Of a DNA stretch of 64,000 nucleotides, positions 7,694 to 63,575 are shown piece after piece (within the stretch, counting starts at the first letter, position 1; each line of letters begins with the position of its first letter). Origin of the DNA: Candidatus Micrarchaeota archaeon. GTDB lineage: Archaea; Micrarchaeota; Micrarchaeia; CABMEP01. Position numbers and translations under genes: made by a program. The stretch is from positions 30,773 to 94,772 of the forward strand of contig CAYHPR010000002.1 in assembly GCA_964358895.1 (NCBI GenBank), in the 5' to 3' direction. Under the pieces are notes generated by a model. That model ran no database searches, had not been told where the DNA came from, and saw only the letters and a program-made list of their open reading frames with translations.

Positions 7694-8860
7694 TTATTTT
7701 GCTGCTGATACTATTTTTATTACATCTCCATCTTTCAAAACATAATCCTTAGCTATCCTTATCTTTTTCTTTGCATCAATTGCATATAGAAAAGATTTAG
7801 CCAGATCTGTATGTATTTTTGCTGCAAATGCAAGAGCAGTAGTTCCTCTCCTAACAAGAATCGCATCTGGAAGAATATTGCCGAAATTATCGGCAAATTT
7901 ATTTTCATCACTTACGGGGAATACAGTAATCAATTCTAATTGCCTAAATGCTGCTGCATTTAATGTCTCTTGCACGCCAGAACCCTTATTTTCCTTCAAA
8001 ATCTTAGCAATTTTATTTAGCGCAGAACGCTGGCCCTCGCTGACATTCGCAAGCATCTCAAAATCTAAAGCACCGGAATTGTATTTTACCAATCCTTTTT
8101 CGTTGGCCTTTCTTAGAGCAAGCTCTCCGTCTGCATAAACGGATAGTATAGTTCTGTTAGGAAATTCCTTAACAAGTTTATCGAATTTCTCTCTAGCATT
8201 TGGAAGATCAATCTTATTCGCAGCAATAAGTATGAGTAGTGACCTTTCCCTTATTTTATAGGCGAACTTTCTCACCTCGTCTTCAGACCACGTAATCCTA
8301 GTTTTAGGTAGAGATAATTCGTCTGCCAAATGGTCTACAACCTCTGGTGAGATGTTCAGACCCGTAAGGATAGAATGAACTGAGTCTATATTTTTTCCTT
8401 TAATTTTGGTCCAATTCTTCAAGAGTATATCCGTGAACCATTCATTAATTTCTTTTTCCAAAAATCTTATTTCTTCTGCTGGATCTGCATTTTCAATTGG
8501 GTTCCCTTCTAAGTCAGTAGTACCGCTGACATCAATGACTTGGATCAATACATCTGCAGTTCTAACACTATCAAGAAATTTGTTACCTAATCCTTTACCT
8601 TCATGTGCACCTGGAACAAGACCTGCTAAATCAACTACGTTAATTGGAACATAGCGAATGCCATTTACACATTTAGAATTTTTTGGATTACATTTAGCAG
8701 CTATAACTGATTCAGGACAGTTCGTAGTTATGAAAGTGACTCCTTTGTTTGGCTCTATGGTTGTAAAGGGTCTGGAAGAGATTGGAACATCTATCTTTGT
8801 TATAGCTGAAAAGAACGTTGACTTTCCTTTGCTCGGTGCACCGGTTATGCCTATTAACAT
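7694..8860 (-). CDS. OBG/YchF-DRG-like GTPase with C-terminal TGS domain
   Basis: G1 GITGAPSKGKSTFF, G3 DLAGLVPGA, G4 NKID, C-terminal TGS-like ..GDVIKIV. The start is placed at the internal Met (MLIGITG); the ORF-track extension to 8896 looks non-coding. Confidence 0.85.
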   Translation of the reverse strand: MLIGITGAPSKGKSTFFSAITKIDVPISSRPFTTIEPNKGVTFITTNCPESVIAAKCNPKNSKCVNGIRYVPINVVDLAGLVPGAHEGKGLGNKFLDSVRTADVLIQVIDVSGTTDLEGNPIENADPAEEIRFLEKEINEWFTDILLKNWTKIKGKNIDSVHSILTGLNISPEVVDHLADELSLPKTRITWSEDEVRKFAYKIRERSLLILIAANKIDLPNAREKFDKLVKEFPNRTILSVYADGELALRKANEKGLVKYNSGALDFEMLANVSEGQRSALNKIAKILKENKGSGVQETLNAAAFRQLELITVFPVSDENKFADNFGNILPDAILVRRGTTALAFAAKIHTDLAKSFLYAIDAKKKIRIAKDYVLKDGDVIKIVSAAK

Positions 8861-11520: not shown

Positions 11521-11634
11521 AAAATTGATAAGGAATGGATGGAGATAAACGTTTGCGGAGGACTAACACCACACAAACTTTCTTTTTAAGAAAGTTTAAT
11601 CAAAGAATTGAAGAATGAACGATGTACGAATTGT

Positions 11635-14000: not shown

Positions 14001-14137
14001 AGTTTCAAGATCCTATATTCAAATTTCATTAGAATTTTTATTAGAAATATGAACCAGCTAATGATGAACAGATTATGAAATTGGATTCTTATTGCACAAA
14101 TATGAACGACAGAAAGTGTGCCCTCACTTTCTTCTCT

Positions 14138-19641: not shown

Positions 19642-19765
19642 GCTTCGGTCGTCTAGTCCGGTTAAGGATCTTGGCCTTTCGTACAACTTTTAGTAAAAGT
19701 TTGATCAAACTTGACTAAATTTGTAAAGTTAGCCAATGACCCGGGTTCAAATCCCGGCCGGAGCA
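19642..19765 (+). tRNA. tRNA-Glu (UUC) with a 49-nt intron at 37/38 (19682..19730)
   Basis: GCTTCGGTCGTCTAGTCCGGTTAAGGATCTTGGCCTTTCG[49 nt]AGCCAATGACCCGGGTTCAAATCCCGGCCGGAGCA. Anticodon stem TTGGC/GCCAA, loop CTTTCGA. Confidence 0.85.
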
Positions 19766-25195: not shown

Positions 25196-26961
25196 CTATT
25201 TAATTTTCTTTCTTTAACTCTCTGCCTTGCCTCTGAGTCTGCTCTTGACCAGTAATAATTATTATAGTCTACAAATTTCATTGAACTTGCCCTAGTTTCT
25301 GACTGCTCTTTTAATTTCTGATGCATTTTCTGGCACATTAGTCTGTAGTTAGGATGCCCCTGTTTTCCAGTTCTTAGTTCAAGCATATGCATTGCTTCTC
25401 TGTCATTCATTCCCATATACCATCTTACATTGAATCCAAATGGCACAACATATTGTGCAATTTCATTACCCATTGCCGTTCTAATCTTTTCATAAAGATT
25501 TGATGCAGTTTCATAATTTTCTACAAGTTTATCTTCGAATCCGGCTTCATTTATTTCTTCAGGTATAGAAAAGCCTAATCTAGTCGTAAGTTTCTGTCTT
25601 TCTTGAGTCAGCATCCTATGTCTTTGCAGGTCCCTATAAATGCCAAAACTTTCAACCAAATCATAAAGTAAAGGATATCCGTATTCTAATGCTCTTCCAG
25701 GTTTGTCTCTTCTTGAGTTTCTATCTCCAATATATGTACAGTATATCTCCTTCCTTTTTTCTTCAGGTAGTTCACGCACGATATTAATTATTTGTTCCAT
25801 TGAGTGTTCAGTATACTTGTATAGCATAACTGCAATCTGTCTTATTTCAAACTCTTTTTCAAATCTTTTTATCAAGTCCTTTGGCAATTCTCGTTCTAAT
25901 AACCCACTAATATTCCCCGAAAATTTACCCTCAAAATATTTGTTTAAATCTTTTGCCAATGCTTCCGCAATAAATCTTATTCCATTGTCAAGCAGTGTTA
26001 CGTCTTCTGTCAATTTAACATTTTTTTTATCAAAAATAGAATTAACTAGACGCTGCATGGTTTTTCTTGTTTCCATAATATATCCATTCGGTTTAGCTCT
26101 TTCTACAAATCTAGGGATTACTTTATTTAGTTCATAATGTAATTCTTCACCCCTAATCTTAAATTCAGGCACGTCTGACGAATAAAGTTTAGTTAGTAAG
26201 TTCTGATACGCTCTTCCATTACAGAACAACGCAACATTTGATAAGGTGGCAGCGGGCAACGGTCCTCTTATTGTGTCGCAGGCTTTAGTTTTAATATCAA
26301 AATTATACGTTGTTAACCACGCGTTTCTATCGTTTTCATCAGTCAGCGCTGCAAGTTTAAGCTGCTCACCGGTTCCTTTTATATCATAAGTTGCTTCAGT
26401 AATGGGTTTAAGTTTTTTGAAGTAGTCGGTCATCGGTGCTATCAGATCGCAATATGTTTGGAATAATTTGTCCATTGTTTTTACGTATTCCTCTTTGTAT
26501 TCTGAGTTCATTATCGGATTCTTAGTTTTATCTTTGAGATAGCGGAAATTTCCAGCAGTATCTTTTTGGTTATAGAAAACGTACCGAGAAGATTGTTCGA
26601 TATATGCTACTCCGATTCTACAGTCTTCTATTTCCTTTATGGCTAGATTGGAGATATTTTCTAATCTAACAAGAGCCCCTTCCAATTCTCCAACTGAATC
26701 GTCACCGTAAGCAACAAGCACTTTTTCAATTAGTTTATCAAGCTTCTTTAAGTTGAATTGCCCATCTTTGGCGAATTCCTTTGTAACAATTGTCCTCCAT
26801 CCATATGCCGCACGACTAAATCTAGTTACAGTCGCTCCACCTATTCCTGGAGGCAAAAGAATAACAGAGGTATCCCCAAGTGCATTTGTTGTATACTTGG
26901 ATAAGAAGTTAATATCCTGTTCATTAAATTTTTCAAATTCACCTTCAAACTGATCAGTTAT
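25192..26961 (-). CDS. thyX: Large ThyX-family (flavin-dependent thymidylate synthase-like) protein; start codon unresolved
   Basis: YRDLQRHRM (RHR motif) and ELRTGKQGHPNYR. The frame is open and conserved-looking (FNEQDINFLSKYTTN...) upstream of the TTG used by the ORF track (26856), up to 26994, without ATG/GTG/TTG. Confidence 0.75.
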   Translation of the reverse strand: MTDQFEGEFEKFNEQDINFLSKYTTNALGDTSVILLPPGIGGATVTRFSRAAYGWRTIVTKEFAKDGQFNLKKLDKLIEKVLVAYGDDSVGELEGALVRLENISNLAIKEIEDCRIGVAYIEQSSRYVFYNQKDTAGNFRYLKDKTKNPIMNSEYKEEYVKTMDKLFQTYCDLIAPMTDYFKKLKPITEATYDIKGTGEQLKLAALTDENDRNAWLTTYNFDIKTKACDTIRGPLPAATLSNVALFCNGRAYQNLLTKLYSSDVPEFKIRGEELHYELNKVIPRFVERAKPNGYIMETRKTMQRLVNSIFDKKNVKLTEDVTLLDNGIRFIAEALAKDLNKYFEGKFSGNISGLLERELPKDLIKRFEKEFEIRQIAVMLYKYTEHSMEQIINIVRELPEEKRKEIYCTYIGDRNSRRDKPGRALEYGYPLLYDLVESFGIYRDLQRHRMLTQERQKLTTRLGFSIPEEINEAGFEDKLVENYETASNLYEKIRTAMGNEIAQYVVPFGFNVRWYMGMNDREAMHMLELRTGKQGHPNYRLMCQKMHQKLKEQSETRASSMKFVDYNNYYWSRADSEARQRVKERKLNS

Positions 26962-27001
26962 TTTCCCACCATTAAAAGCTACCAGAAGACCTATTTATTG
27001 A

Positions 27002-28870
27002 TTACTGTAACTTCTGATCGGTTTTTTGGTCGATTCGTTGATCAATAATTCGTTCTTGCATTCGTGTTGCTTTTGGCAACGTGAAGCTGATTGTACTGCC
27101 TTGTCCTGTTTCTGATTTTTCAACCCACACGTCTCCTCCATGTAATTTAACGATGTCTTTAGCTATGGCAAGGCCGAGGCCGCTACCTTCTTTTTTGACC
27201 TGTTTTCCTGCCATTTGATAAAATCTCATGAAAATATTCTGCCATTCTGTTTTTGGGATGCCCGAACCTGTATCTATAACATCTATTCGTATATTTTTTT
27301 TGTCGGATGGATACGCATTTACTGTGACCGAACCTTTTTCTGTGAATTTTATTGAATTTGTGACTAGATTAGTCACTACTTGAGCGATTCGGTCCATATC
27401 TCCATCTACTTCCCCTATTATATCTGGAGTATTCCACCGCACCACTAACCCTTTCTTTTCAGCAAGTGATCTGAATGAGCAGCGGTCTTCAAGTGTGCTT
27501 AGGTAAAACGGTTTTCGGTGAATAACGATGGCACCTGCTTCAAGTTTCGAAATGTCCAGCAGATCGTTGATTAGTTTTGCTTCTCTTATTGCTTCTTTGT
27601 GTATTATTTCAGCAGCTTCAGTCTGTTCTTTGTTAAGCAGGCCAAGACTTTTACTATTCAATAATGATGCATATCCCTGAATATTTGTTAGTGGAGTTCG
27701 CAAGTCGTGCGAGACATTACTAACGAACTCTGATTTTAGTCTGTTAAGTTCCATCAGTTCTTTATTCTGTCTTTCTAATTCTCTGCGGATTTGTTCAGTT
27801 TTATCCTCTGCTTTCTTTTTTTCGTCTATGTTTCTCATCGTTCCTCTGAATCCCGTTACTGTTTGCAGTTCTTTGACTGGTACTGCATTTGCAGAGAAGT
27901 AAACCCATCTCTTCTTTGAATTTTGCAGTCTGAACTCAAGGTCACGAAAACCTTTCCCTTCGTTCTGTGCTTTATTCAAAATATTGATGACATTCGAAAG
28001 ATCGTCGGGATGTATAATGGAAACGATTGATTTGACTGTTTCGGGTTTATGTCCAAGTTGTTTTTCAAATTGATAATTTGAATACTGAATTTCTCCTTGT
28101 TTATCTATGACAAATATAATGTCAGTTACATTATCCACCAGCTGCTGGTAAACTTCCTTAGCTTGTGTTATTTGTTCCTTAAGTTTGGTGCGTTCTGATA
28201 CGTCCTTTACTATACAAACAGCAGCTCCATCTACTGGAAGCAGATTGACTTCTGCTTCAAAATTTGTTCCATCTGCTCTGACGCAATTAGTCTCATTTTT
28301 TTGCACTCTATTTTCGGCAGCAGCTTTTTTTATCAGTTGATTAATTTTGCTTCCCCAACCCATCAGATCCTTTATTCCAATTCCAGTGAAATCTTCTTTC
28401 CCAAACATTTTCTTTGCAGCTACATTCCACTCAATTATTCTACCATTTTTATCAATACGTAAAATTGCATCCTGAGTGGTTCCTTCAATTACTCTGAGAA
28501 GTTCAGTGTTCTGATCTAAATGTCTGCGTTGGCTAAGGTTTGAAAGCAACAAAACAGCACTATTATCTATCGTAAGTTCCGTAAATCCAATTTCTATCGA
28601 TGTACCGTTTTTCTTTTTCAACTTATTTTTGTTAAGTATCTTGCTTAATTTACTCCCAATTAATTCACTACGCTGGTATCCTGAAAGAAGTTCAAAGGAA
28701 TTATTTAATTCAATTATTACCTTTTTATCGTTTAGAACAATTCCAGCTTCTCTTAAGCTATCAAATAATAGTTTAAATTTGTTAATTGTCTGTTTTTGCG
28801 GTTCTGTTACATCTTGATTAATGTCTGAGAGCTGTAGCTGCCCTTCGACCGCTTTCTGTTCATCTGCCAT
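27002..28870 (-). CDS. Sensor histidine kinase with multiple PAS domains (cytoplasmic)
   Basis: H-box FVSNVSHDLRTPLTNIQGYA; HATPase N/G boxes (DTGSGIP, GSGLGLAIAKDIVKLHGG); about 3 PAS-like repeats upstream. Confidence 0.9.
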   Translation of the reverse strand: MADEQKAVEGQLQLSDINQDVTEPQKQTINKFKLLFDSLREAGIVLNDKKVIIELNNSFELLSGYQRSELIGSKLSKILNKNKLKKKNGTSIEIGFTELTIDNSAVLLLSNLSQRRHLDQNTELLRVIEGTTQDAILRIDKNGRIIEWNVAAKKMFGKEDFTGIGIKDLMGWGSKINQLIKKAAAENRVQKNETNCVRADGTNFEAEVNLLPVDGAAVCIVKDVSERTKLKEQITQAKEVYQQLVDNVTDIIFVIDKQGEIQYSNYQFEKQLGHKPETVKSIVSIIHPDDLSNVINILNKAQNEGKGFRDLEFRLQNSKKRWVYFSANAVPVKELQTVTGFRGTMRNIDEKKKAEDKTEQIRRELERQNKELMELNRLKSEFVSNVSHDLRTPLTNIQGYASLLNSKSLGLLNKEQTEAAEIIHKEAIREAKLINDLLDISKLEAGAIVIHRKPFYLSTLEDRCSFRSLAEKKGLVVRWNTPDIIGEVDGDMDRIAQVVTNLVTNSIKFTEKGSVTVNAYPSDKKNIRIDVIDTGSGIPKTEWQNIFMRFYQMAGKQVKKEGSGLGLAIAKDIVKLHGGDVWVEKSETGQGSTISFTLPKATRMQERIIDQRIDQKTDQKLQ

Positions 28871-28943
28871 ATTGTGCTTTTAGCGTAAGAGATTTAATGT
28901 TATTTATTGAAAGAGGGCTACAGCAAGTAAACAGAGGCAGAAG

Positions 28944-30158
28944 ATGAGAATAGAAGAGGCACAGCTAGAACAGGATATACTGCACGCACTGACTACTGCT
29001 GACGGTGGAGTCGAGACGTCAGAACTTTTAAGCAGTATTTCTTCGGATAAAGACGAGATTAAGGCGGCTCTAGTCAGACTTAAAGGCGATGAGCGTATAG
29101 ACAGCAGATTTGTTGGCAAGAACGAATATTGGTATGTACTGGCGCACACAGAGCCAAAAAGGATACTAGTTGTCGAGGACGATAAAGATATTAATAAACT
29201 AATTCAGCTTTCAATCGGTGGCGGGTATAAAATTGAGGCAGCTTATGACGGCGATGAAGCACTCGGTATGGTTGATGTATTTAAGCCAGATTTGATTTTT
29301 CTAGATCTAATGTTACCTGGGGCCAATGGCTTGGAGATATGTAAGAAAATAAAGCAAAGTCCAGACAAAAAAAATACAACTATTGTTATTGTTTCTGCTG
29401 CGGATGCAGCCGTTAACCGTTTCTTCGGAATTAAATATGGTGCAGACTATTATATCAAAAAGCCATTCGAGCCAATGGAGCTCAAGGCTCTAACTAAAAT
29501 TTTTCTCAAGAAACACGGAAGCTTATTCGATCCGCTTGTAGACCTCCCAGATGTGAAGAGACTTCTTACAGTGATAAAGAGTTACGTAGACGAAAAAGAC
29601 ACAGAATTTACTAAAATAGATCTTGACGGACTTGAAGAGTATCAGGTAAGTTATGGAAAGAAAGAAGCAAAACTTATTGTCAGGCTGGTTTCACAAATGC
29701 TCCAGGATAAATTGAAGGAGACAGAAATTAATGCAACTATTGCATATCTAGGTGAGAATTCTTTCGTCATAGCTGCAAAGCGTGGCAATGCTGATAAGTT
29801 CTTAGCCGAGACAGAAGCTGATTTCAGGCGTGTCTCAGGTTTCATCAGACAGAAGCACAAGATAACTGGAGAATTATTCGAAAAATTAGAACGTGGAAAG
29901 ACAGGAGGCCAGAAATTCGCACTTAGACTTGTATACTATACTATCAATATGGATGCATTCAAGAAACAGTTTGAGAAGGAAATTTGGCCAGACGTCACAG
30001 AAGAAGCCAAACAAATCAATATTGCGGCTGTACGCAATATTTCACTTGATCAGATAAGAACTCTCTTCGAGACGGTCGCATCTAAAGATATCGAAGTTTC
30101 AATGAAGGAAGTAGGCGGCCAATCAAGGATCACTGCAGGAAGACCAGGGAAAAAATAG
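28944..30158 (+). CDS. Response regulator: wHTH-like N-terminus + REC + degenerate GGDEF-like (nucleotidyl-cyclase fold) C-terminal domain
   Basis: REC: ILVVEDDKDI...DLIFLDLMLPGANG...K. C-terminus: DPLVDLPD.., KIDLDGLEEYQVSYGKKEAKLIV, AYLGENSFVIAA align with GGDEF-domain DPLTGL / DIDxFKxIND..G / GGDEF blocks. Confidence 0.8.
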   Translation: MRIEEAQLEQDILHALTTADGGVETSELLSSISSDKDEIKAALVRLKGDERIDSRFVGKNEYWYVLAHTEPKRILVVEDDKDINKLIQLSIGGGYKIEAAYDGDEALGMVDVFKPDLIFLDLMLPGANGLEICKKIKQSPDKKNTTIVIVSAADAAVNRFFGIKYGADYYIKKPFEPMELKALTKIFLKKHGSLFDPLVDLPDVKRLLTVIKSYVDEKDTEFTKIDLDGLEEYQVSYGKKEAKLIVRLVSQMLQDKLKETEINATIAYLGENSFVIAAKRGNADKFLAETEADFRRVSGFIRQKHKITGELFEKLERGKTGGQKFALRLVYYTINMDAFKKQFEKEIWPDVTEEAKQINIAAVRNISLDQIRTLFETVASKDIEVSMKEVGGQSRITAGRPGKK

Positions 30159-32897: not shown

Positions 32898-33442
32898 TTT
32901 TAGACCTATGATATTTGTTTTTTAATCTATTAATTCTTTCTATTCTGATGTTTTACTTGAATTTTATACAGCTTACGCTAGCAGTCTGCGAAATTAATTA
33001 AGAAAAAAGAATAGGATGAGTGAAGAACACGGAAACTTGAGAAATAGGAGATTTAGTATTGGACTGGCACACAAATCGCTTGCGCTCTTTGCTTACACCA
33101 CCAACCTATCAAACCCGTCTGCTACGGGCTCCCACAGCTGACTCGTTTTGGGAGATCCTTCGACCTTAGATGCTTTCAGGTCTTATGATCTGGCGCGTGG
33201 CTGCCCGGCGATGCTTGTTACAACCGGTATACTAGAGGCGCCTACCCTCTGTTCCTCTCGTACTCAGAGGATATTACCCTCAGTCAACAACACTCCCAGT
33301 AGATACTACCGTACTGTCTCGCGACGTACTGAACCCAGCTCGTGTACCTCTTTAACGGATGTACAACCCGACCCTTGGAAGCTCCTGCACTTCCAGGATG
33401 AGATAAGCCGACAGCGATGTACCAAGCCGCGGGGTCGATATG

Positions 33443-33490
33443 TACGCGATAGTCTAATTAGTGTTTGACGAAAACTAGGCTATCGCAGGG
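33443..33490 (-). other. 23S insertion 1 (48 nt, ORF-less) inside the H89-equivalent GAGT|CATATCGAC block
   Basis: Conserved CGATATG..TACTCTCGCCCGCG is split by a hairpin, GCGATAG..CTATCGC. The boundary is ambiguous by the repeated TAC. Confidence 0.6.
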
Positions 33491-33513
33491 TACTCTCGCC
33501 CGCGACGAGCCTG

Positions 33514-33860
33514 TTTTGGGTCATTCCAGCAAAAATAAAATTACGAATAATTAATTTACGAATTTGATTTGTTATGAATAGAATTATTGACGTAGCTAAA
33601 CGTCAAAATTTACGAGGTTTATTCGTAAATTATCCATAAAGAATCCAGAGTTTCGACTAAAGCATTTTTGAAAAAAATTCGAGAATCAAGAAAAATTCAA
33701 GATTAAATCTAAGAGTAACTCTAAGAGTATTTCTAAGATAAAATCTACGATTATATCTAGATATCTAAAATTATTTTCATATTGTTTGCGCTTTAGGTGT
33801 GGTAGTAAGAGGAGATCAAACTAAACCACACTCTGGACTCCAAAATTTTCACTGAAACGA
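33514..33860 (-). other. 23S insertion 2 (347 nt, ORF-less, AT-rich) splitting GGGG(G/A)UAA|CAGGCU
   Basis: Exon halves ..gagcctg (33507-33513) and ttacccccgggg (33861-) rejoin to the universal CCGGGGATAACAGGCTGAT-like block. There is no ORF of 60 aa or more; internal TTACGAAT and TCTAAGAGTA repeats are present. Confidence 0.7.
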
Positions 33861-34029
33861 TTACCCCCGGGGTAACTTGTCTGACAGATTGAGCCCTTAT
33901 CAAAAGGATTTCAATGTTCATTAAGCCCGACTTTCGTCTCTGCGAGACATACTGTTAGTCTCACAGTCAGTCCTGCATTTCTCTTTAACCGTTATCATCC
34001 GACGTTCAGCGATGATGAGCGTCATTCGC

Positions 34030-34129
34030 TGCTTTGCCTCATCATAAACTTTTAGGAAATCTTTCGAAAATAAATTTCGAAAAATTGTTTTATAAAAAGT
34101 TTCTGAGGTTGTACATAATATCATTCGCA
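34030..34129 (-). other. 23S insertion 3 (about 100-150 nt, ORF-less, long AT hairpin); boundaries uncertain
   Basis: CCTCA..AAACTTTT....AAAAGTTT..TGAGG hairpin flanked by the direct repeat TCATTCGC. The region is longer than the corresponding E. coli or haloarchaeal segment as recalled from memory. Confidence 0.5.
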
Positions 34130-34536
34130 CATCACTGATCACTTTCGTTTCTGACCGGATTAAGCAGAACATTGGGCGCCTTTATTTCCTTATCGAAGGC
34201 GTACTGCCCCAGCCAAACTATCCATCTGCAGCTGTTCCTTTTCAGGTTAGAAACACAAAAATTGTAAAGTGGTGTTACATTGGTGCATCCACCTCGGCCG
34301 CGACCAAGGTTTCTACGCTCCCACTTACGCTATGTAACAATTCCTATATTTCAACAACAGACTATAGTAAAGCTCCACGGGGTCTTCGTTTCCCACTAGG
34401 AGTCCTCCGCATATTCACGGAGCAGTGAGTTCACCAGGTCCCTCTCTGGGACAGTGGGGGATTCGTTATGCCCTTCATGCAAGTCGCCAATTAAGCGACG
34501 AGGTATTACGCTACCTTAAGAGGGTCAGATTGGTAC

Positions 34537-34567
34537 AAAATTTCTATTAGAAATTTTCTAGAAATCT
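34537..34567 (-). other. 23S insertion 4 (about 31 nt) in the GGTAAACGGCGG|CCGTAAC-equivalent block
   Basis: aaaatttctattagaaattttctagaaatct interrupts otherwise conserved sequence immediately 5' (RNA sense) of CTTAAGGTAGCG. Confidence 0.5.
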
Positions 34568-35617
34568 CGTGTTACCCCCGCTCTTCGCCAGCCCTTTGTG
34601 CCCTTGAACGAGCGTATCGGGTACTGGTAGTGAGCAGGCATCGCCTTCCATACTAGACATTGCTATTTTGCGTAAAGCTGTGTTTTTGGTAAACAGTCGA
34701 TCCCCCCAATTCACTGCGACCTGCGCATGCAACTTGCGTCACAAACGCAGGCAATCCTTGTACCGAAGGTACGGATCTATTTGGCCGAATTCCCTAGAGA
34801 GAGTTCCCCTGCCACGCCTTAGAATTTTCATCTTGCAGCACCTGTACTGGATCTTGGTACGATCACAACGAATCGGATAGAGAAATTTTTCACGGACCCA
34901 AAGCGTACGCCAAACCGCCTAAGGGCGGCTATTCGCATATTATACTGCTTCTCCTCATAATGAGACTCCACAGTACTATGTTGCTTAAACAGAGTCTCCC
35001 CTGCTCAGCTTAGCTTCAGATGTCAATCTCTACCTTGTGTTGCCACGTCTATCGTTGTGGCTGCCGAATATTAACGGCATTCCCTTTCATGTCCTAGTAA
35101 TTGGCTGGACATTTAGGATCGGCTAACTCTTGGCTGTCGAACGTTGCCAAGAAAACCGAGTGCTTTCGGCGTTCAGGATTCTAACCTGAATTTGCTGCTA
35201 CTGACGCCAGGATATTTATTGCAAAACGGTCCATAGGAGCTCACGCCCCTACTTCTGCCCGTTCCGCACACCTTCCTACCAGATTACGTATTTTGTACGT
35301 ACTCTTGGGTATCAGAAATCAGTTTAGTCCCGTACATTTTCGGAATGTGTACTTCTTCTAGTAAACTAGATCGAGCGGTCCGCTATTACGCGTTGCTTAG
35401 ACGATGGCTGCTTCTGAGCCTACGTCCCGCTTGTCTAGAAATGAACACTCCTTGTGACTTCACACTTAACTGATATTTAGGGTCTTTAACCCAAGTTTCG
35501 GTCGTTCCCGTCACGGCACACTAGCTTACCCAGTGCAACCCGACTCTCAACTTCTACAATGAACAAAGATTCGGAGTTTGACAAGAAAGCAGACTCTTTC
35601 GAATCTATTCTCCCTAA

Positions 35618-36547
35618 TCAGTGCTCTACCCCTTGTTCCATCTCCATTGAGGTCATCCTGATGGATGCTTCGGAAGGAACCCGCTTTCGCGGACTTAAAA
35701 GGCTATTAAGTTCGTTTTTCTTCCGGATAACCGGAATATGAGTATAAAATCTTTTTACATTTTCAAGACCATTAATATACAAATCATAAGTTGATCTGTT
35801 TTTGTATGGTCCTGCTGAATTTATTGGGAAAGTTGAAAGTGCTTTCCTAATAAATTCTAAAGATTCTTTGTTTGTCTGCGTGATTTTTAGCTTATATCTC
35901 CCTGTTTTTTCAACTGTTTTAACAGAAGGGCAATATCCTTCTGCGTCGAAAAAACCAGCAATATATTTACTCCACAACTTCTTATTTTCAGCTATCATTT
36001 TTGGTGTCGACCACGTTGTTTGTCTTGTCGGCATTTCAAAAACTTTTTCGAAAAAGATAACTAAAGGTTTAGATGAAAACCTTAGTCTGTAACTTTCTCT
36101 ATCTTTTTCTATAACTCCTTTAATTCGGAAGTTCATCTGAAAAATCTTGCTTAAATATTTCAACCAAAATTCAGCATATTTTCCGCTTTGAGTTATTACG
36201 ATATCGTTTTTTCTCCCAGTTTTTCTGAGATTTCCGTCCCTCAAAGCACCTACAAGATAAGCTACATCTTCGTTTATTTTAGGAATCTTTATTCCTTTAT
36301 TGCTAAGAGACCTAATGTCTTTGGCAATTGTTAGGATTTCACTTTTTTCCTTTTCGTTCGAAATTTCCAAAAGCAAATCTAACGGAATTGCAACCCCTGA
36401 AAGATAACTATATTTTGTAGATCTTTTCAATTTGCCGAGTTTTTCGAAGTGAGTTTTAACAATCTCTTCACAACCTGTTATGAAAAGATTCTCACCTTTG
36501 AAATATTCAACAAGAAGCTGTTTATCACGCATACAGTTTTTACTCAA
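35618..36547 (-). CDS. LAGLIDADG homing endonuclease (double-motif), intron-encoded in 23S
   Basis: Motifs VAYLVGALRDGNL and YIAGFFDAEGYC. The last 22 codons of the ORF-track model read into the downstream rRNA exon. The likely ATG start is at 36532. Confidence 0.85.
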   Translation of the reverse strand: MSKNCMRDKQLLVEYFKGENLFITGCEEIVKTHFEKLGKLKRSTKYSYLSGVAIPLDLLLEISNEKEKSEILTIAKDIRSLSNKGIKIPKINEDVAYLVGALRDGNLRKTGRKNDIVITQSGKYAEFWLKYLSKIFQMNFRIKGVIEKDRESYRLRFSSKPLVIFFEKVFEMPTRQTTWSTPKMIAENKKLWSKYIAGFFDAEGYCPSVKTVEKTGRYKLKITQTNKESLEFIRKALSTFPINSAGPYKNRSTYDLYINGLENVKRFYTHIPVIRKKNELNSLLSPRKRVPSEASIRMTSMEMEQGVEH

Positions 36548-36561
36548 TTAGCCCTTTAAAT
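35684..36561 (-). other. 23S insertion 5 (878 nt) with LAGLIDADG ORF, splitting GCGAUAG|CGGGUUCC (E. coli GAGAUAGCUGGUUC block)
   Basis: Flanking sequences rejoin to the conserved ..CAATCGAACATCGCGATAG+CGGGTTCCTTCCGAAGC. Confidence 0.7.
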
Positions 36562-37554
36562 CTATCGCGATGTTCGATTGGACTTTCACCCCTATTCCAA
36601 GGTCACCCAAGTGGATATACCAACACTGGTTGCGGCCCTCCACCAATCGTTAGATCGGCTTCAGCCTGCCCCGGAATAGATCACAACCGCTTCGGGTCAT
36701 ACAATAGTGATCAAACGCATTTTCATACGTCCCGCCTCGTTCAGCACTGCGCGGAATTGCTTTCGCTACGTCTTTCGACTCACCACTACCGTATACTCCC
36801 TGGCTCTTGATTCGAGAAGTACGATGCAACACTGGTCCATTTTCCTGGTCCACTGCCTTGCGACAGTTTGCTTCGGAAAACTTCGACCCTTTCGTGCCAC
36901 ACCAACCTGTAACCATTCAGTTTCAGGCTCTTTTCAAAGGTCTTTCGACCTACTTTTCAACGTTCGCTCACGCTACTAATTCGCTATCGGTCTTGGATAC
37001 TTGTTTAGGATTAGAGGTTGATCCCCCCAACTTCGTGCTCCATTCTCGAGGAGCACTACTCACATCGTTACCCTCCTTTACGTTTTGCTTACGGGACTAT
37101 CACCCTTTGTCGTAAGACTTTCCAGTCTACTTCAGCTCCTGTAAAGGATAGTTGTAACGCCCACATCCACTACATATTACTATGCAGAGTTCGGTTTGTC
37201 CTGTCCGGCTTTCGGTCGTCTTACTCACCGGATCCCAATTGGTTTTTCTTCCTTCGGTTACTGAGATATTTCAATTCACCGAGTTTTTGTCCATTCCTGG
37301 ACGCACAGATATCTTCGGTTCAACGTTCGCATGCAACTCCCCGAAGCTTTTCGCAGCTTGCCACGTCTGCTTGAAATCCAAGCCTGGCCATCCCCTGAAT
37401 GGCGTATTAACTTCTCACTGTTCTCGTGTCCTTCACTCAAACCTATAAATCAGCGTCACAGCACATTCTCATGTGCTCAGCAATCCTTTGTCCAATCATT
37501 CGGACAAAATCATACTTCAACGAAACTTCGACGCTATTAACGTCAAAGTTTCTA

Positions 37555-37769
37555 TGGACTCGGCGTGATTCCCGCATAAGAACCTATGGTTCTTATTATC
37601 TCCTAGGCAATTGCCTAGATCGTTTCGGTTTCGAACACGCAGCCTCCTCCTGTTTTGGAAACTTTTTTTGTTAAGAAGTTTCATCATCAAACCAGCCGTT
37701 TTTTGATGAAACTTTTTCTTACAAAAAGTTTCTTGCAAAGGAGGCGCTCTACCATTGAGCTACGAGCCC
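37555..37769 (-). tRNA. tRNA-Ala (UGC) in the 16S-23S spacer, with two introns (82 nt at 37/38: 37652..37733; 61 nt in the T-loop: 37569..37629)
   Basis: Exons GGGCTCGTAGCTCAATGGTAGAGCGCCTCCTTTGCA / AGGAGGAGGCTGCGTGTTCGAA / TCACGCCGAGTCCA assemble to a 72-nt cloverleaf with the G3:U70 Ala identity pair and T-loop TTCGAAT. Confidence 0.8.
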
Positions 37770-38281
37770 AGTATTAACACTTCAAGGTCCTTCAGTGGAC
37801 ATATATGCTCTGAATTTTTTAGAAAAAAATCTAACCAAAAACAAGTTTTGATCAAACTTTCAAGAAAAAATTGTTCAACGTTTGAATTAAGTATCAAACA
37901 ATTGACGTTTTTAACGTCAATATTTAGCAATTTGCATTGCTAATCAAATTAATTACGCACACGACTCTCACAAATTTTTATTTTCATAAAATATTGGAGG
38001 TGATCTATCCGCAGGTTCCCCTACGGATACCTTGTTACGACTTAGCCCCCCTCATAAAAATTTGGTTCGAGGCTACCAATTTCTCAATAGCGCCTCACCA
38101 GACTCTCACTTGGGTGACTTGACGGGCGGTGTGTGCAAAGAGCAGGGACCGATTCACCGTACGATTGTGACATACGATTACTAGGGATTCCAGCTTCATG
38201 AGGGCGAGTTTCAGCCCTCAATCCGAACTTAGACTAGGTTTCGGGGATTAGCTCCACCTTTCGGTGTGGCAACCCATTGTC

Positions 38282-38911
38282 CTAGCCATTGTAGGCCACG
38301 TTAGGCTCTCGCGAGGTAAATTTAGGATGATAAGTATAAATTTTACGAAAATAAGCATCAGTATTATTGAAACCATTTATTTGGAGTCCATACATTTTGC
38401 CTGAATTCCAAGTAGAGAATTTCAATCCTAGATCTTTCAATAGGAAAGCCAGTTCATCTCTTATTGTTTTATTTACTACATGCATTGCAATTCTTGGATA
38501 GATGTATGTTCTTCTTTCTTTTTTTACTACTTTTCGTGTGATGCAACCTTCTGCATCCATCCACCCTCCAATATACGATGCCTTAGTTTTACTTCCTGAA
38601 TTCATGATCCATTCTGGCGTTTTCATTTGAAAAGTTTTCGTCCTTCCTTCAGGAACACCCAGTTTAATCAAGAAATTGTAGAGTTTTTTCGACCAAATTC
38701 TTATTCTATAACAAATATTACCTAAAGCAGTTTTCATCACATAAATTTTTGCTTTTATGTTCAACGTTTCTTCAAATAGTTTTGTTACAGTTTGTAAAAA
38801 TTCGAAAGAAGGATCTACAATATTGATTTCATAGTTACCTTTTCCATCTTTTGAAAGGCTTCCGTCGCCCCCAATTAGACCTACCAAATAAGCCAAAGAT
38901 TTTCTTTTCAT
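38282..38911 (-). CDS. LAGLIDADG homing endonuclease (double-motif), intron-encoded in 16S
   Basis: Motifs LAYLVGLIGGDGSL and ASYIGGWMDAEGCI. The ATG (MKRKSLAYL) is at 38911. The frame is open over the entire intron, and the last 6 codons lie in the exon. Confidence 0.85.
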   Translation of the reverse strand: MKRKSLAYLVGLIGGDGSLSKDGKGNYEINIVDPSFEFLQTVTKLFEETLNIKAKIYVMKTALGNICYRIRIWSKKLYNFLIKLGVPEGRTKTFQMKTPEWIMNSGSKTKASYIGGWMDAEGCITRKVVKKERRTYIYPRIAMHVVNKTIRDELAFLLKDLGLKFSTWNSGKMYGLQINGFNNTDAYFRKIYTYHPKFTSREPNVAYNG

Positions 38912-38992
38912 TATCTTTGTCAAATTTTTGTAGTTTTTAAAGGTTATGAGACACCTAACAACCGGTGATCCTAAGGATATTTTACCTCGCAA
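38300..38992 (-). other. 16S insertion 1 (693 nt) with LAGLIDADG ORF, splitting GGGCTACAC|GTGGCCTACAATGG
   Basis: Intron termini are complementary (CTCGCGAGGTAAA / TTTACCTCGCAAG). The exons rejoin to the archaeal GGGCTACACGYGGGCTACAATGG block. Confidence 0.75.
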
Positions 38993-39015
38993 GTGTAGCC
39001 CGGGAGATTAGGGGC

Positions 39016-39145
39016 TTTAGCCGTCGATAGCAGTGTAAATATAACAACTGCCTGCCGGCTCCCAAAAATCTTTGGCTAACATGTTCTGCGACATATTTGT
39101 GCAAAGTGCTGTGTTTAATGTGGTGTTGTGATACCACTATCGACG
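39016..39145 (-). other. 16S insertion 2 (130 nt, ORF-less) splitting ..GGTCAGTATA|GCCCCTAATC.. (E. coli CATCATG|GCCCTTA block)
   Basis: Terminal inverted repeat GTCGATAG..CTATCGAC. The flanks rejoin to GGGGCATACTGACCTACCGTCGCC-like conserved sequence (plus-strand view). Confidence 0.65.
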
Positions 39146-39259
39146 TATACTGACCTACCGTCGCCCTCTCCTTCCTCTGTTTTAACAACAGCGGTTCCTT
39201 TAGAGTGCCGCTTCCCCGGAGGAAAACGTTGCAACTAAAGATGAGGGTCTCGCTCGTTT

Positions 39260-39848
39260 CCAGACTCAATGGTAACGCCACAAAAGAAATAAGCATGATT
39301 AATGTTTAGTTTTATTTTCAGATTTTTCAGGTCTGTATTTTATTAATGAAAGAAAATTTTCAACGTCTCTGATCCAGAGATCTTTTCCCTTTCGTTTAGT
39401 ATAGAACCCAAGATGTTCAATCAGTAACTGATCTTGGAAGTTTGTGTTATGAATAATACTTCCATCTCCGTCTGATATGTACATCCCCCTTAGAAAAGAT
39501 GCGGATAAATTATTTTTTCTTCCAAATATCTCATTTTGATTTTTTAGAGTGTTTAAGAAGAAAGTCTTAATTTTGTGATGAGAGAACCAGATAGCTCTAT
39601 CTTCACTTACAATCTTTTCAGGAGGAACTAATCTAAGTTTGAGAACCATTTCGACAAATTTTTCTTGTTTATCAAAATTTCCAAATACTCCTACACTCTG
39701 ACGAGTACGTCTGAGTTTCCAGAATCCGATAAATTCTGCTAATTCGTTTGTCAATTTTAATTTCATATTCTCATCTTAGTTGTTTAGTTCTTTATTCTTT
39801 CTTTTTGTTTCTTTTGTGGACATTCACCAAAGAGTTTACTGGACTTAA
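39260..39848 (-). other. 16S insertion 3 (589 nt) with a short LAGLIDADG-like ORF, splitting GGTTAAGTCCAG|AAACGAGCGAGACCC
   Basis: The flanks rejoin to the universal GTTAAGTCC.GCAACGAGCGCAACCC block; the boundary is known to within a few nt. Confidence 0.7.
39299..39766 (-). CDS. LAGLIDADG-like protein, short (155 aa), first motif degenerate
   Basis: The second motif FLRGMYISDGDGSI is intact. The N-terminal LAEFIGFWKLRRT occupies the first-motif position but lacks the acidic residue. Confidence 0.65.
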   Translation of the reverse strand: MKLKLTNELAEFIGFWKLRRTRQSVGVFGNFDKQEKFVEMVLKLRLVPPEKIVSEDRAIWFSHHKIKTFFLNTLKNQNEIFGRKNNLSASFLRGMYISDGDGSIIHNTNFQDQLLIEHLGFYTKRKGKDLWIRDVENFLSLIKYRPEKSENKTKH

Positions 39849-40208
39849 CCAGACAGCTCACGCCACGAGCTGACGATGGCCATGCACCACCTCTCGGCTC
39901 GTTAGGTAAGATCTTTAGTCTGACCTTCATCCTGCCGTCGCTCCCGGTAATATTCCCGGCGTTGAATCCAATTAAACCGCAGCCTCCACCCCTTGTGGTG
40001 CTCTCCCGCCAATTCTTTTAAGTTTTAAGCTTGCGCTCGTACTCCCCAGGTGGCAGACTTAACGCTTACGCTACGGCACTGCCAATCCTCGAAGGAAAGG
40101 CAACACCTAGGTCTGCATCATTTACTGCTAGGGCTACATGGGTATCTAATCCATTTCGTTCTCCTAGCCTTCGCACCTCACCGTCAGACATGTTTTAGCC
40201 AGACGCCT

Positions 40209-40260
40209 AAACGCTTTCTTTCAGTTTCTTTGATGAAACTTTTCTTTTAGAAAGAAAGTT
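40209..40260 (-). other. 16S insertion 4 (52 nt, ORF-less) splitting GGCGA|AGGCGTC
   Basis: The flanks gacgcct / tcgccgc rejoin to the conserved GCCTTCGCC block. The insert is an AT hairpin containing AAAAGTTTCATCAAAGAAAC (RNA sense). Confidence 0.7.
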
Positions 40261-40467
40261 TCGCCGCTGTGGGTCCGTACAGGATTAACGGATTTTACTC
40301 CTACTCTATACGTACCTCTGGCCCCCCCCATTCTCAAGCTCGGTAGTACTCTCTGCACGCCTTTCGGTTAAGCCGAAAGATTTCACAGAGAACACGCCGA
40401 ACCGGCTACGTGCGCTTTAAACCCAATATACGTGGATACCACTCGGGCTGCCGGTATTACCGCGGCT

Positions 40468-40512
40468 TCCAGTTTCATTACGATGTAAAACGTGTAATTT
40501 CGTAAGGAAATG
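40468..40512 (-). other. 16S insertion 5 (45 nt, ORF-less) inside the universal GTGCCAGC|AGCCGCGGTAA (515-533) block
   Basis: attaccgcggct[45 nt]gctggcac, with an internal TTACGA..TCGTAA hairpin. Confidence 0.75.
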
Positions 40513-41224
40513 GCTGGCACCGGTCTTACCCAGCCCTTATTCTATCTGCTATTTACACAAATCAAAAGACCCTCTAAAAGAGGATCACTCGGAATTTCTT
40601 TGTCACGCTTTCGCGCATTGCAAAATTTTCGCGCCTGCTGCATCCCGTAGGACTAGGGCCCTTGTCTCAGTGCCCTTCTGGGGGCTCCAACTCCCATTGC
40701 CCCTACCGATAATCGGTTTGGTGAGCCGTTACCTCACCAACAGCCTAATCGGCCGCAGTCCAATCGTTAAGCCCACACCATACAATTCTGGTGCAGATTT
40801 CAGTCAGGAGGCGTTCCAGATCTCCAGACCTATAATGTATTATCCTCAATTTCTCGAGGTTATCCACTTCTAAACGTTATGTTGACCACGTGTTACTCAG
40901 CCGTGTGCCACGACTCCATAAGAAGTCGTCGACTTGCATGGCTTAGCCAAATTCCGATAGCAGTACCCTCCAGCAAGATCAACTGGAATTACGTCGATGT
41001 TTGTCGACGAGTATATTTATTTCTGTATGTTTTGACGAGCTCAAACGCTGTTGCTAACTTATCAGTTAGCGGTCGAGCACATATGTCCCTTGCTGAACCT
41101 TGAAGTGTATATCGAATCCAAACTTACGTCTTGGATTCTCATGGTAATAGTGTACGCTGCAGTGGAAACATGCAATTCATTGCACGAGAAAAAGACCCGT
41201 ACTCCTCTTGGCCGTTCTACAGCT

Positions 41225-54304: not shown

Positions 54305-54441
54305 CGAGCCCGAAGGGATTTTCGGAACAATCGGAAAGTTTTGTCGAACTTTTCCAAAAGTTCGTTCGAACCCTCAACCTCTCTGGACCGGTTATTGTGT
54401 TGGTCCGAAGCCAAGCGCTCTGTCCGTTGAGCTACGGGCCC
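54305..54441 (-). tRNA. tRNA-Arg (UCG, tentative) with a T-loop intron (46 nt, 54319..54364) and a short insert 3' of the anticodon loop (about 18 nt, 54382..54399)
   Basis: Exons GGGCCCGTAGCTCAACGGACAGAGCGCTTGGCTTCGGACCAA / GAGGTTGAGGGTTCGAA / TCCCTTCGGGCTCG give a stem CTTGG/CCAAG, loop CTTCGGA, and T-arm GAGGG-TTCGAAT-CCCTT. The exact boundaries of the first insert are uncertain. Confidence 0.65.
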
Positions 54442-58626: not shown

Positions 58627-58750
58627 GCCAGGGTAGCTCAGTTTGGTTAGAGCGCCAGACTCATAAGATCTTAAAACTCAAGACCGATCGATGTCTGTCA
58701 TCGGTTTCTAAGAAATCTGGAGGCCGAGTGTTCAAATCCCTCCCCTGGCA
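58627..58750 (+). tRNA. Elongator tRNA-Met (CAU; could be tRNA-Ile2) with a 49-nt intron at 37/38 (58666..58714)
   Basis: GCCAGGGTAGCTCAGTTTGGTTAGAGCGCCAGACTCATA[49]ATCTGGAGGCCGAGTGTTCAAATCCCTCCCCTGGCA, with one U:C mismatch in the T-stem. Confidence 0.8.
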
Positions 58751-63441: not shown

Positions 63442-63575
63442 GCAGGGGTGGCGGAGCTTGGAAATCGCGCAAGACTTAAGACCTTAAGCGATCTCGCACA
63501 AAACTTTCTTAGAATAAAGTTTGTAGGAGATCTTGTGCCTTAGTGGCTACGTGGGTTCAAATCCCACCCCCTGCA
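63442..63575 (+). tRNA. tRNA-Leu (UAA) with a 49-nt intron at 37/38 (63481..63529)
   Basis: GCAGGGGTGGCGGAGCTTGGAAATCGCGCAAGACTTAAG[49]ATCTTGTGCCTTAGTGGCTACGTGGGTTCAAATCCCACCCCCTGCA. It has a long variable arm and is 85 nt when mature. Confidence 0.85.

Follow-up and report, generated by a model that had tools for sequence, protein, structure and literature searches.

A 29-nucleotide hairpin unit shared by tRNA and rRNA mini-introns of a Micrarchaeota archaeon and by repeats in other archaea and in bacteria

How archaeal transfer RNA (tRNA) and ribosomal RNA (rRNA) genes gain introns is an open question. The closest described case is that of the Thermoproteales, in which tRNA introns that have a bulge-helix-bulge fold and lack an open reading frame (ORF) are reported to transpose and to have been gained after species divergence (Fujishima et al. 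2010, Mol Biol Evol 27:2233; PMC4090602); transposition was inferred there without a known donor unit or mechanism. The stretch described here, a low-G+C (~37%) window of 64 kb (the whole stretch of DNA that was analysed) on contig CAYHPR010000002.1 of an uncultured Micrarchaeota archaeon, holds an rRNA operon and several tRNA genes, and some of their ORF-less introns carry a common unit of about 29 nucleotides (nt), a short hairpin followed by a conserved tail. Copies of the unit also lie outside introns, both in the window and in other archaeal and bacterial genomes. The wider component of the finding is a 29-nt hairpin element conserved across domains.

The unit consists of a 9-base-pair (bp) A/U-rich hairpin, [G/C]AAACUUUU-loop-AAAAGUUU[C/G], and a tail AUCAAAA(C); within introns it starts 1-2 nt past the 5' splice site. 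It is carried by intron A1 of tRNA-Ala, intron I2 of the 16S rRNA gene and the intron of tRNA-Glu, and more weakly by the T-loop intron of tRNA-Arg and the tip of intron J3 of the 23S rRNA gene. Among 78 intron pairs, the eight top local alignments all fall within the set A1, I2, tRNA-Glu, tRNA-Arg T-loop, tRNA-Leu and J3. The resemblance between A1 and the 16S insert, noticed in an earlier note on this window made from the sequence alone, is real: the pair scores 37, dinucleotide shuffles average 18.6, and only one of 4000 shuffles reaches 37. None of 4000 reaches the score of the tRNA-Glu/tRNA-Arg T-loop pair, and the A1/tRNA-Glu pair also exceeds its shuffles. A1 and I2 are collinear for ~36 nt from the first intron base; among the unit-bearing introns the alignment is confined to the 5' ~29-36 nt, the 3' parts being different, and no similarity runs over whole introns. 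The pattern AACTTTN{2,12}AAAAGTTTSATCAAA has three matches in the window (A1, I2 and the tRNA-Glu intron) and none in 100 shuffles, the form common to the three being AACTTT-N(2-12)-AAAAGTTT[C/G]ATCAAA. Heptamers AAACTTT and AAAGTTT occur 34 times in the 64 kb, 13 of them within ~1.2 kb of mini-introns and rRNA spacers.

A covariance model, R1, was built from 25 copies taken from other genomes only, and from 29-nt copies only because the alignment program MAFFT misplaced gaps in copies of variable length. It recovers six copies in the window; the scores of A1, I2 and tRNA-Glu are partly circular, since these three defined the pattern with which the other copies were fetched, and the remaining three are independent of it.

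37700-37732: tRNA-Ala intron A1; 41.4 bits, E 2e-7
40227-40262: 16S intron I2; 28.4 bits, E 2e-4
19683-19711: tRNA-Glu intron; 27.4 bits, E 3.6e-4
37845-37884, minus strand: copy in the 16S-tRNA-Ala spacer (ending GAAAGTTTGATCAAAAC), outside introns; 22.9 bits, E 0.004
54338-54364: tRNA-Arg T-loop intron; 21.3 bits, E 0.009 (weak, borderline)
11574-11606, plus strand: intergenic copy CAAACTTTCTTTTTAAGAAAGTTTAATCAAAGA between two minus-strand protein ORFs; 20.7 bits, E 0.013

The window thus holds at least six short, non-coding, palindromic copies in 64 kb. The earlier note had counted three further tRNA introns as members. Of these, tRNA-Glu belongs, by both pattern match and R1 score (27.4 bits), and tRNA-Arg T-loop is a borderline copy (21.3 bits, E 0.009); membership of the tRNA-Leu intron is not supported, since at 10.8 bits (E 2.6) it matches as no more than a generic hairpin. 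The R1 search of the window gave no match in J3. The note's call to look for copies outside RNA genes is answered by the intergenic copy at 11574-11606, and that at 37845-37884 lies outside introns.

A scan of the Genome Taxonomy Database (GTDB) collection, one genome per species, with the pattern from this window returned at least 120 loci and at least 140 matches. Among the 132 distinct matches listed, 131 have an A before the pattern, 128 have an A after the tail, and in 123 the hairpin is two pairs longer than the pattern required; the closing pair swaps G:C for C:G. In a viral collection the full hairpin was present in 19 of 35 contexts of the true pattern, against 1 of 15 when the arms were swapped and 0 of 9 and 0 of 1 when the tail was permuted. 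These figures bear on the simplest explanation, that A/T-rich low complexity and the need for a helix beside the splice site would produce such similarity by chance. The introns are indeed only 22-37% G+C and rich in hairpins, the arm-swapped control still found 21 loci in the viral collection, so that loose matches are common, and the tRNA-Leu similarity is of this kind. Yet the two best pair scores are reached by 1 of 4000 and 0 of 4000 shuffles, the pattern occurs three times against 0 in 100, positions left free by the pattern are near-invariant in the 132 matches listed, the controls lack the full hairpin, and the splicing motif fixes only four bases near the 3' end of an intron, not the sequence of the hairpin or the tail. 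Chance is highly improbable as a general account; having been tested, it is rejected for A1, I2 and tRNA-Glu, for which composition is likewise excluded, and it continues to apply to tRNA-Leu. The shared strings are homologous, as the note had held, on the combined showing of shuffles, pattern test, R1 and viral-collection controls, and common descent of the unit is supported.

The minus strand carries the rRNA operon (16S 37995-40989, tRNA-Ala 37555-37769, 23S 33033-37422), and its 16S and 23S genes each exceed the length of the archaeal model by ~1.4-1.5 kb. The inserts responsible were mapped by Rfam alignment, by joints in RNA contigs and by exon anchors in related genomes, and their sequences are given in RNA sense (minus strand). 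Together with the tRNA genes of the window they are as follows.

37995..40989, minus strand: 16S rRNA gene; Rfam SSU_rRNA_archaea, 1041 bits, model positions 1-1478 over 2995 nt; five introns, I1-I5
40467..40511, minus strand: 16S intron I1, 45 nt, no ORF, without the unit; site GTGCCAGCC|GCCGCGG, a 48-nt insertion in the Rfam alignment
40208..40259, minus strand: 16S intron I2, 52 nt, no ORF, with the hairpin-tail unit; the R1 match at 40227-40262 includes three exon bases
39261..39841, minus strand: 16S intron I3, 581 nt; joint 39260>39842 in RNA run X17
39016..39146, minus strand: 16S intron I4, 131 nt, no ORF, without the unit; joint 38301>39147 leaves only a 21-nt micro-exon
38302..38994, minus strand: 16S intron I5, 693 nt; ORF for a LAGLIDADG homing endonuclease of 236 amino acids (aa), Pfam LAGLIDADG_3, 8e-13
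33033..37422, minus strand: 23S rRNA gene; Rfam LSU_rRNA_archaea, 2026 bits, model positions 1-2987 over 4390 nt; five introns, J1-J5
35684..36561, minus strand: 23S intron J1, 878 nt; 309-aa LAGLIDADG ORF, Pfam LAGLIDADG_3, 4e-11
34530..34570, minus strand: 23S intron J2, ~41 nt, no ORF; arms AAAAUUUC/GAAAUUUU, different from the unit
34004..34148, minus strand: 23S intron J3, 145 nt, no ORF; RNA contigs join 34003 to 34149
33514..33860, minus strand: 23S intron J4, 347 nt, no ORF; joint 33439>33861 leaves only a 26-nt micro-exon
33443..33490, minus strand: 23S intron J5, ~48 nt, no ORF, without the unit; ends within +/-3 nt, joints skip 33440-33491
37555..37769, minus strand: tRNA-Ala(UGC), G3:U70, two introns; read from sequence
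37652..37733, minus strand: tRNA-Ala intron A1, 82 nt, canonical position 37/38; begins AGAAACTTTTTGTAAG
37569..37629, minus strand: tRNA-Ala intron A2, 61 nt, in the T-loop, without the unit; junction UUCG/CGGG
19642..19765, plus strand: tRNA-Glu(UUC); found by ARAGORN with introns allowed; 49-nt canonical intron at 19683-19731 that opens with the unit; junction CUUU/AAAG
54305..54441, minus strand: tRNA-Arg(UCG), introns of 16 nt and 46 nt; read from sequence
63442..63575, plus strand: tRNA-Leu(UAA), 49-nt intron (ARAGORN); AAACUUU/AAAGUUU hairpin, no tail
58627..58750: tRNA-Met, 49-nt intron (ARAGORN)

All of these inserts are archaeal bulge-helix-bulge introns, which the splicing endonuclease would cut out before the exons are rejoined. 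Metatranscriptome contigs from three runs, which covered the rRNA introns only, contain exact exon joints for I2, J3, J1, I3, I4 plus I5, and J4 plus J5. I2 is skipped exactly in contigs of runs X4, X7 and X17, and the J1 joint, from 35683 to 36562, is present in X4 and X7. The contigs differ from the window by 0-4 mismatches per 133-243 nt, as against 3-9 for the intron-bearing relatives L226 and L274 and 9-37 for intron-less relatives; the RNA is nearer the window than are even the intron-bearing relatives and so comes from the intron-bearing clade, and the gaps reflect splicing rather than intron-less genes. For the 16S insert, the size of 52 nt and the reading as an intron given in the earlier note are both borne out; its borders are placed at 40208-40259 rather than at 40209-40260, the junction being ambiguous by 1 nt.

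At the mapped borders, 13 of the 16 inserts (I1, I2, I5, J1-J5, A1, A2, tRNA-Glu, tRNA-Leu and tRNA-Arg T-loop) have a 4-bp central helix with all four pairs, a 3-nt bulge to either side of it and one or two flanking helices; for J1, J4, J5 and tRNA-Glu this holds to within 1-3 nt of the borders. I4 and tRNA-Met have three of the four central pairs, and I3 is the third insert outside the 13. The A1 junction is fully canonical (UUUG/CAAA, 4/4, inner helix 10 bp, outer helix 5 bp). In the rRNA genes the central helices are CCAG/CUGG in I1 (4/4 pairs), GGCG/CGUU in I2 (9-bp inner helix), GGCU/AGCC in I5 (13 bp), GGUA/UACC in J2 (11 bp), GGGU/ACCC in J4 (15 bp) and UCAG/CUGA in J3 (6-bp outer helix); the inner helices of the rRNA introns measure 3-15 bp, that of I4 being 12-13 bp.

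The mini-introns lack ORFs, as had been proposed: introns of 41-145 nt have no room for one, and LAGLIDADG ORFs occur only in J1, I5 and probably I3. The I3 ORF (39299-39766, 155 aa) has a LAGLIDADG-like motif and no Pfam match at 1e-3, in a Pfam scan that covered ten ORFs of the window.

The tRNA-Ala gene is not detected by ARAGORN with default settings; its exons are identical across 12 relatives. In intron A1 the unit is followed by GGCU and an inverted second copy (R1 18 bits at 37658-37692, plus strand), so that its long hairpin is a palindrome of the unit. The site of A2 holds an intron of 33-78 nt in all relatives. The T-loop introns of tRNA-Ala and tRNA-Arg occupy the same position (59/60), the former being kept in all relatives. 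That of tRNA-Arg (54319-54364, 46 nt, junction UUCG/CGAA) has a diverged copy of the unit at its start, and the other, 16-nt intron of this gene lies within the 3' strand of the anticodon stem. Immediately past the 3' end of tRNA-Ala, the trailer (37520-37554) opens with the hairpin UAGAAACUUUGACG..CGUCGAAGUUUC, which has the same GAAACUUU/AAGUUUC ends and is found in L226 and not in L274. The introns of tRNA-Glu, tRNA-Met and tRNA-Leu are each exactly 49 nt by ARAGORN, and their sequences are different.

Twelve related operons, obtained from a metagenome scan with the 5' half of tRNA-Ala, show how unevenly the introns are distributed. I1, J5, A2 and J3 are found in all or nearly all relatives, with compensated changes in the J5 stem and, in the six relatives in which I1 was found, in its hairpin. 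J1, I5 and J2 are found in the window genome only, among the relatives compared; I3 is found in L226, L274 and L292 only, and I4 in L226 and L274 only. J4 measures 213 nt in L226 and ~145 nt in L193 and L240, and is absent in five relatives. The insertion polymorphism that the earlier note suggested looking for among related genomes exists for both A1 and I2. I2 is present in L226, L274 and the distant L292 and absent from five relatives that are intermediate (L303, L193, L240, L305 and L200). A1 is present in L226, L274, L303 and L248 and absent in seven relatives; five of 13 operons carry it, and in L303 it is shortened to 46 nt and has a single copy of the unit. L248 has A1 and L193 does not, in operons that are 96% identical over 923 nt and whose spacers match at 103 of 104 positions. 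The spacer copy lies within a ~66-nt stretch that is missing in L274 and replaced by other sequence in L226. Contigs L001-L003, found through neighbouring proteins and named after a groundwater well metagenome (0.2-µm fraction), are near-identical to the window (99.97-100% identity, no indels) and show no polymorphism.

The J2 site is empty in all eight relatives in which it is readable, including L226, whose flanking exons are ~92-96% identical, and J2 appears to be a very recent gain. A candidate source for it within the window (~14020-14048) was set aside as too weak, its score of 34 comparing with a maximum of 31 in 30 shuffles.

Other relatives have introns at sites that are empty in the window: one of ~566 nt near 16S position 38210, one of ~600 nt near 40013 (L305 and L303), and, near the I4 site, introns of 800 nt and 302 nt in L303 and L292; some have endonuclease-like ORFs, and two stretches of L226 (~8024-8590 and 6266-6370) are among these extra introns. 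A dozen or more sites of rRNA introns occur in the lineage.

Over the unit, A1 and I2 are 70-82% identical and orthologues are 75-90% identical. From this comparison the two introns appear to be paralogues that began to diverge some time ago. The A1 hairpin changes in a compensated way between relatives (ACUUUUU/AAAAAGU, ACUUCUUU/AAAGAAGU, ACUCUUUU/AAAAGAGU) around a constant GUUUCAUCAA part. The same two variants, CTTCTTT..AAGAAG..CAAGAAA and CTTTCTTT..AGAAAG..CAAAGAA, occur at the A1 and I2 loci of different genomes, which hints at exchange between the loci. Concerted evolution of A1 and I2 within a genome was rejected, orthologues being slightly closer than paralogues in the identity matrix; exchange is suggestive only.

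These observations bear on a second explanation, modelled on the Thermoproteales, in which an ORF-less intron, such as that of tRNA-Ala or tRNA-Glu, would have been copied as a whole to splice-competent sites, by reverse splicing and reverse transcription or by recombination. The unit would then be the conserved 5' part of one intron lineage, and any copy outside an intron would be secondary, such as a remnant or the outcome of a separate event. The collinearity of A1 and I2 over ~36 nt from the first intron base, the closeness of paralogue identity (70-82%) to orthologue identity (75-90%), the two variant forms common to both loci in different genomes and the Thermoproteales precedent all fit such copying, as does the placement of the unit, which always occupies the 5' end in sense orientation (12 of 12 introns in other archaea, described below, and 4 of 4 intron-opening copies in the window). 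The 3' parts of the introns, however, are unrelated to each other, no reverse transcriptase is in view, and there are copies for which copying of introns does not account: an antisense copy at the tip of J3 in L226, copies in the spacer, in intergenic DNA and at tRNA ends, and copies in bacteria, which lack such splicing. We regard whole-intron transposition as possible and rather unlikely.

Intron J3 illustrates another relation between unit and intron. Every relative has it, at 97-150 nt; its ends are conserved and its tip varies. The tip of the L226 orthologue contains a copy of the unit that matches the consensus perfectly and lies on the other strand from the rRNA (50.8 bits, E 1e-9); in the window this insertion, also antisense to the rRNA, has decayed, and it is missing from more distant relatives. 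Because J3 is old, occurs in every relative and has the unit only at its tip in the opposite orientation, it is an invaded intron and not a sister of A1 and I2. The earlier note had read 34030-34129 as a 23S hairpin insert that shares the module. The strings it pointed to, CAGAAACTTTTT.. and ..CCTAAAAGTTTATGATGAGG, correspond to the decayed antisense copy together with its flanks; the interval itself is the inner part of the 145-nt intron.

The conserved ends of J3 contain blocks that resemble a kink-turn (K-turn) or box C/D, GCGAAUGAUAU..CCUCUGA and AUGAAGAGG..GAUGACGC, which are retained in L193, L240, L305, L200, L197, L235 and L292 although the exons are only ~78-85% identical; the inner part has AAUGAUA/AUGAAGA blocks. 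To judge from these motifs J3 may carry a functional RNA. The CUGA at its 3' end belongs to the central helix of the splicing motif.

Beyond this lineage the unit is widespread. About half of the 80 titled loci, among the 120 listed, are archaeal: the carriers are Micrarchaeota, Woesearchaeota, Iainarchaeota, Altiarchaeota, Methanosarcinales, other methanogens and Thermococcus. The bacterial carriers are Clostridia (mostly Oscillospiraceae), one Aminicenantes genome and Cloacimonadota. At twelve archaeal loci the unit opens a tRNA intron, in sense orientation in all twelve, 11 of them in the anticodon region and one in the D-loop; the hosts include Micrarchaeota, Woesearchaeota, Altiarchaeota and Methanocellales, and the tRNAs include those for Lys, Gly, Asp, Cys, Met and Glu. 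The 36-nt intron of tRNA-Met at L104 comprises little beyond the unit and four bases complementary to the exon. At six further loci a mature tRNA end and the unit are 2-10 nt apart, the unit being on one strand or the other.

In Micrarchaeota and an unclassified archaeon, partial copies of tRNA genes accompany the unit: on both sides of it, L061 (4620-4834) and L012 have copies of the 5' part and L011 copies of the 3' part, upstream or downstream of the intact gene. The arrangement suggests that one tRNA gene has repeatedly been a site of insertion or recombination. Some copies of the unit (L061, L012 and L039) are flanked by direct repeats of 16-27 nt, inconsistently.

In some other genomes the unit is multicopy. 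A metagenome-assembled genome of Aminicenantes has a ~130-nt repeat, with the unit core between GC-rich hairpins, in more than 20 copies, some in tandem (L016, L020, L028, L047, L056, L058, L066, L068, L074, L099, L110, L111 and L117); it resembles miniature inverted-repeat transposable elements (MITEs) or repetitive extragenic palindromic (REP) sequences. BLAST searches with the bacterial repeat gave no plasmid match and only chance-level matches to isolate phages; a Microviridae match has a different stem. Tandem arrays of the unit occur at L070, L040, L130 and L161, and elsewhere two copies precede a ribosomal protein S2 gene. In Methanosarcina and Methanoflexus (L070 3921-4279, L040, L009 and L083) the unit and a fixed flank form arrays with periods of 83, 69 and 68 nt. 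L070 (83 nt) and L040 (69 nt) repeat whole units, between which the 'spacers' differ little or not at all, so that these are not CRISPR arrays; L009 has just two units, with different spacers. A tRNA gene stands ~400 nt from the L070 array. Full copies, some of them as inverted pairs around short regions, are also present in A/T-rich IMG/VR contigs labelled there as giant viruses (L128, L129, L134, L139, L140, L153, L156, L161, L163 and L164).

No Rfam family covers the unit, either at gathering thresholds for 18 loci or at E up to 10 for the Methanosarcina array, and literature searches that included substrings of the unit found no description of it. Several described motifs were considered and discarded. 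A promoter of the extracytoplasmic function (ECF) type (AAC-N16-TC) and an integration host factor (IHF) site (ATCAAN4TT) do not suit a unit whose loop length varies and which archaea carry. A dimeric operator is contradicted by the C variant, which breaks the palindrome while the closing pair covaries. A CRISPR repeat was dismissed because most copies are solitary, the spacers of the L070 and L040 arrays are not unique and there is no Rfam CRISPR-DR match. The sense strand of the unit has neither box C (RUGAUGA) nor box D (CUGA), and a box C/D guide RNA was rejected on that ground. The distances to tRNA starts do not fit an archaeal B recognition element (BRE)/TATA promoter.

The positions of the copies also raise the prospect that the unit is a functional RNA or DNA motif under selection, serving as a site for a processing or nucleoid protein or as a folding aid for splice sites and tRNA ends. 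It does stand at processing sites, immediately past 5' splice sites and at a distance of 2-10 nt from the ends of mature tRNAs, and orthologous stems are compensated (GAAACUUUUU/AAAAAGUUUC, GAAACUUCUUU/AAAGAAGU(C)UC, GAAACUCUUUU/AAAAGAGUUUC), with swaps of the closing pair and a conserved tail. Such a role is hard to square with the absence of A1 and I2 from several close relatives, the decay of the J3 copy, copies that are antisense or intergenic, and the near-identical multicopy repeats and tandem arrays of bacteria and Methanosarcina, which look selfish; nor is there a matching Rfam family. We consider selection for such a function distinctly unlikely as the explanation.

The reading we favour, with a probability of roughly 0.5, is that of a small proliferating hairpin element that seeds or invades introns. 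The unit would belong to a widespread family of short palindromic repeats that multiply on their own account. Copies would settle where they are harmless, in spacers, in intergenic DNA and at the tips of existing introns; they would also land in tRNA and rRNA genes, where the hairpin and four bases complementary to the upstream exon would form a structure that the splicing endonuclease can cleave, and at such sites the copy would become an intron or enlarge one. The presence of the unit in both orientations, within and outside introns, in spacers that are missing from close relatives, and in many copies elsewhere argues for a small element rather than a family of whole introns. The idea of an intron family of this genome, put forward in the earlier note, does not hold for the same kind of reason: the unit also occurs in the spacer, in intergenic DNA, in other archaea, in Clostridia and Aminicenantes and in the repeats of Methanosarcina. 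Two steps of the favoured account, that the unit spreads as DNA and that its arrival creates introns, are inferred. The broadest form of it, in which the unit is an ultra-small mobile element, not described before and common to Archaea and some Bacteria, that in archaea inserts at or next to RNA processing sites and so supplies raw material for new tRNA and rRNA introns, can be offered only tentatively.

Several points weigh against a small spreading element. The copies that open introns, 1-2 nt after the 5' splice site, are all in sense orientation (12 of 12 in other archaea, 4 of 4 in the window), which random insertion of DNA does not explain, so that whole-intron copying or a step at the RNA level stays in play. 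Around the unit no terminal inverted repeats or target-site duplications were recognised, and movement as DNA is therefore left without a mechanism. Within 2.5 kb of 120 loci (898 flanking ORFs clustered) there is no transposase and no recurrent neighbour gene; the largest clusters are ABC ATPases, TatD, TPR and RFC proteins, and no RAYT or IS200-type gene was seen among the neighbours. A single gain and a single loss suffice to account for the distribution of I2 among relatives. It may also be that the bacterial copies represent a phenomenon of their own, with only the hairpin and tail in common. Finally, the pattern used to fetch copies was derived from this window, and the permuted controls were run in the viral collection and not in the GTDB collection.

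The organism has other features that bear on how it is detected. I1 interrupts the universal 16S primer site GTGCCAGC|CGCGGTAA (515F/519R), and I2-I5 lie in other conserved stretches; a default tRNA search recovers one of the six tRNA genes of the window. With introns in universal primer sites and tRNA genes missed by default finders, such organisms are under-counted, and amplicon surveys would miss or mis-size this lineage. Elsewhere in the window, 25192-30158 encodes a PAS/HisKA/HATPase sensor kinase that adjoins a response-regulator protein; another product of this region, 554 aa long, matches ThyX (Thy1) twice.

For the question of intron gain, the unit provides a concrete, searchable link among tRNA introns, an rRNA intron, spacers, tRNA ends and free intergenic repeats across lineages, and the intron-plus and intron-minus alleles of close relatives make the origin of introns testable. 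If it is indeed an ultra-small mobile element, it would be an archaeal counterpart of eukaryotic introners.

Compared with the tRNA introns of the Thermoproteales, as summarised in PMC4090602, the introns of the window are alike in that those of non-orthologous genes are similar, have no ORF and are gained and lost among close relatives. They are unlike them in that the host is a low-G+C groundwater archaeon and not a thermophilic crenarchaeote, that a unit of ~29 nt is common rather than the whole intron, that one carrier is a 16S rRNA intron, and that the unit is also found outside introns and in other phyla, including bacteria. The remark in the earlier note that such mini-introns are not well described is accordingly only partly true: transposition of ORF-less tRNA introns has already been described in the Thermoproteales, and it is the unit of which no description was found in the literature.

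The LAGLIDADG mobile rRNA introns, known from the 16S genes of Thermoproteales (PMC4496867), are likewise bulge-helix-bulge introns of 16S and 23S genes with a patchy distribution among relatives, and J1, I5 and probably I3 are of this ordinary type. The unit-bearing mini-introns (41-145 nt), in contrast, have no ORF, have no sequence in common with them and are not visibly remnants of deletion. The element of Caldiarchaeum that disrupts tRNA genes (PMC3293823) also combines intron gain with scattered partial tRNA copies, as at L061 and L012 here, but it is 1.8 kb long and encodes a recombinase, whereas here only the ~29-nt unit is held in common.

Like REP sequences and bacterial interspersed mosaic elements (BIMEs) and like MITEs, the unit is a short hairpin with a conserved single-stranded flank, is intergenic and multicopy, sometimes forms tandem or inverted pairs and has near-identical copies within a genome. 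To our knowledge, the known families of these kinds are restricted to one species or genus; the unit, unlike them, keeps ~26 conserved positions across archaeal and bacterial phyla. Eukaryotic introners (PMC11282704) resemble it in that a short, non-autonomous repeat multiplies and is spliced from genes, and they arise in bursts and have sequence in common. The differences are that here a protein endonuclease that reads an RNA fold takes the place of the spliceosome, that the genes entered are RNA genes and not protein genes, that no transposase partner is known, and that the unit is about ten times smaller.

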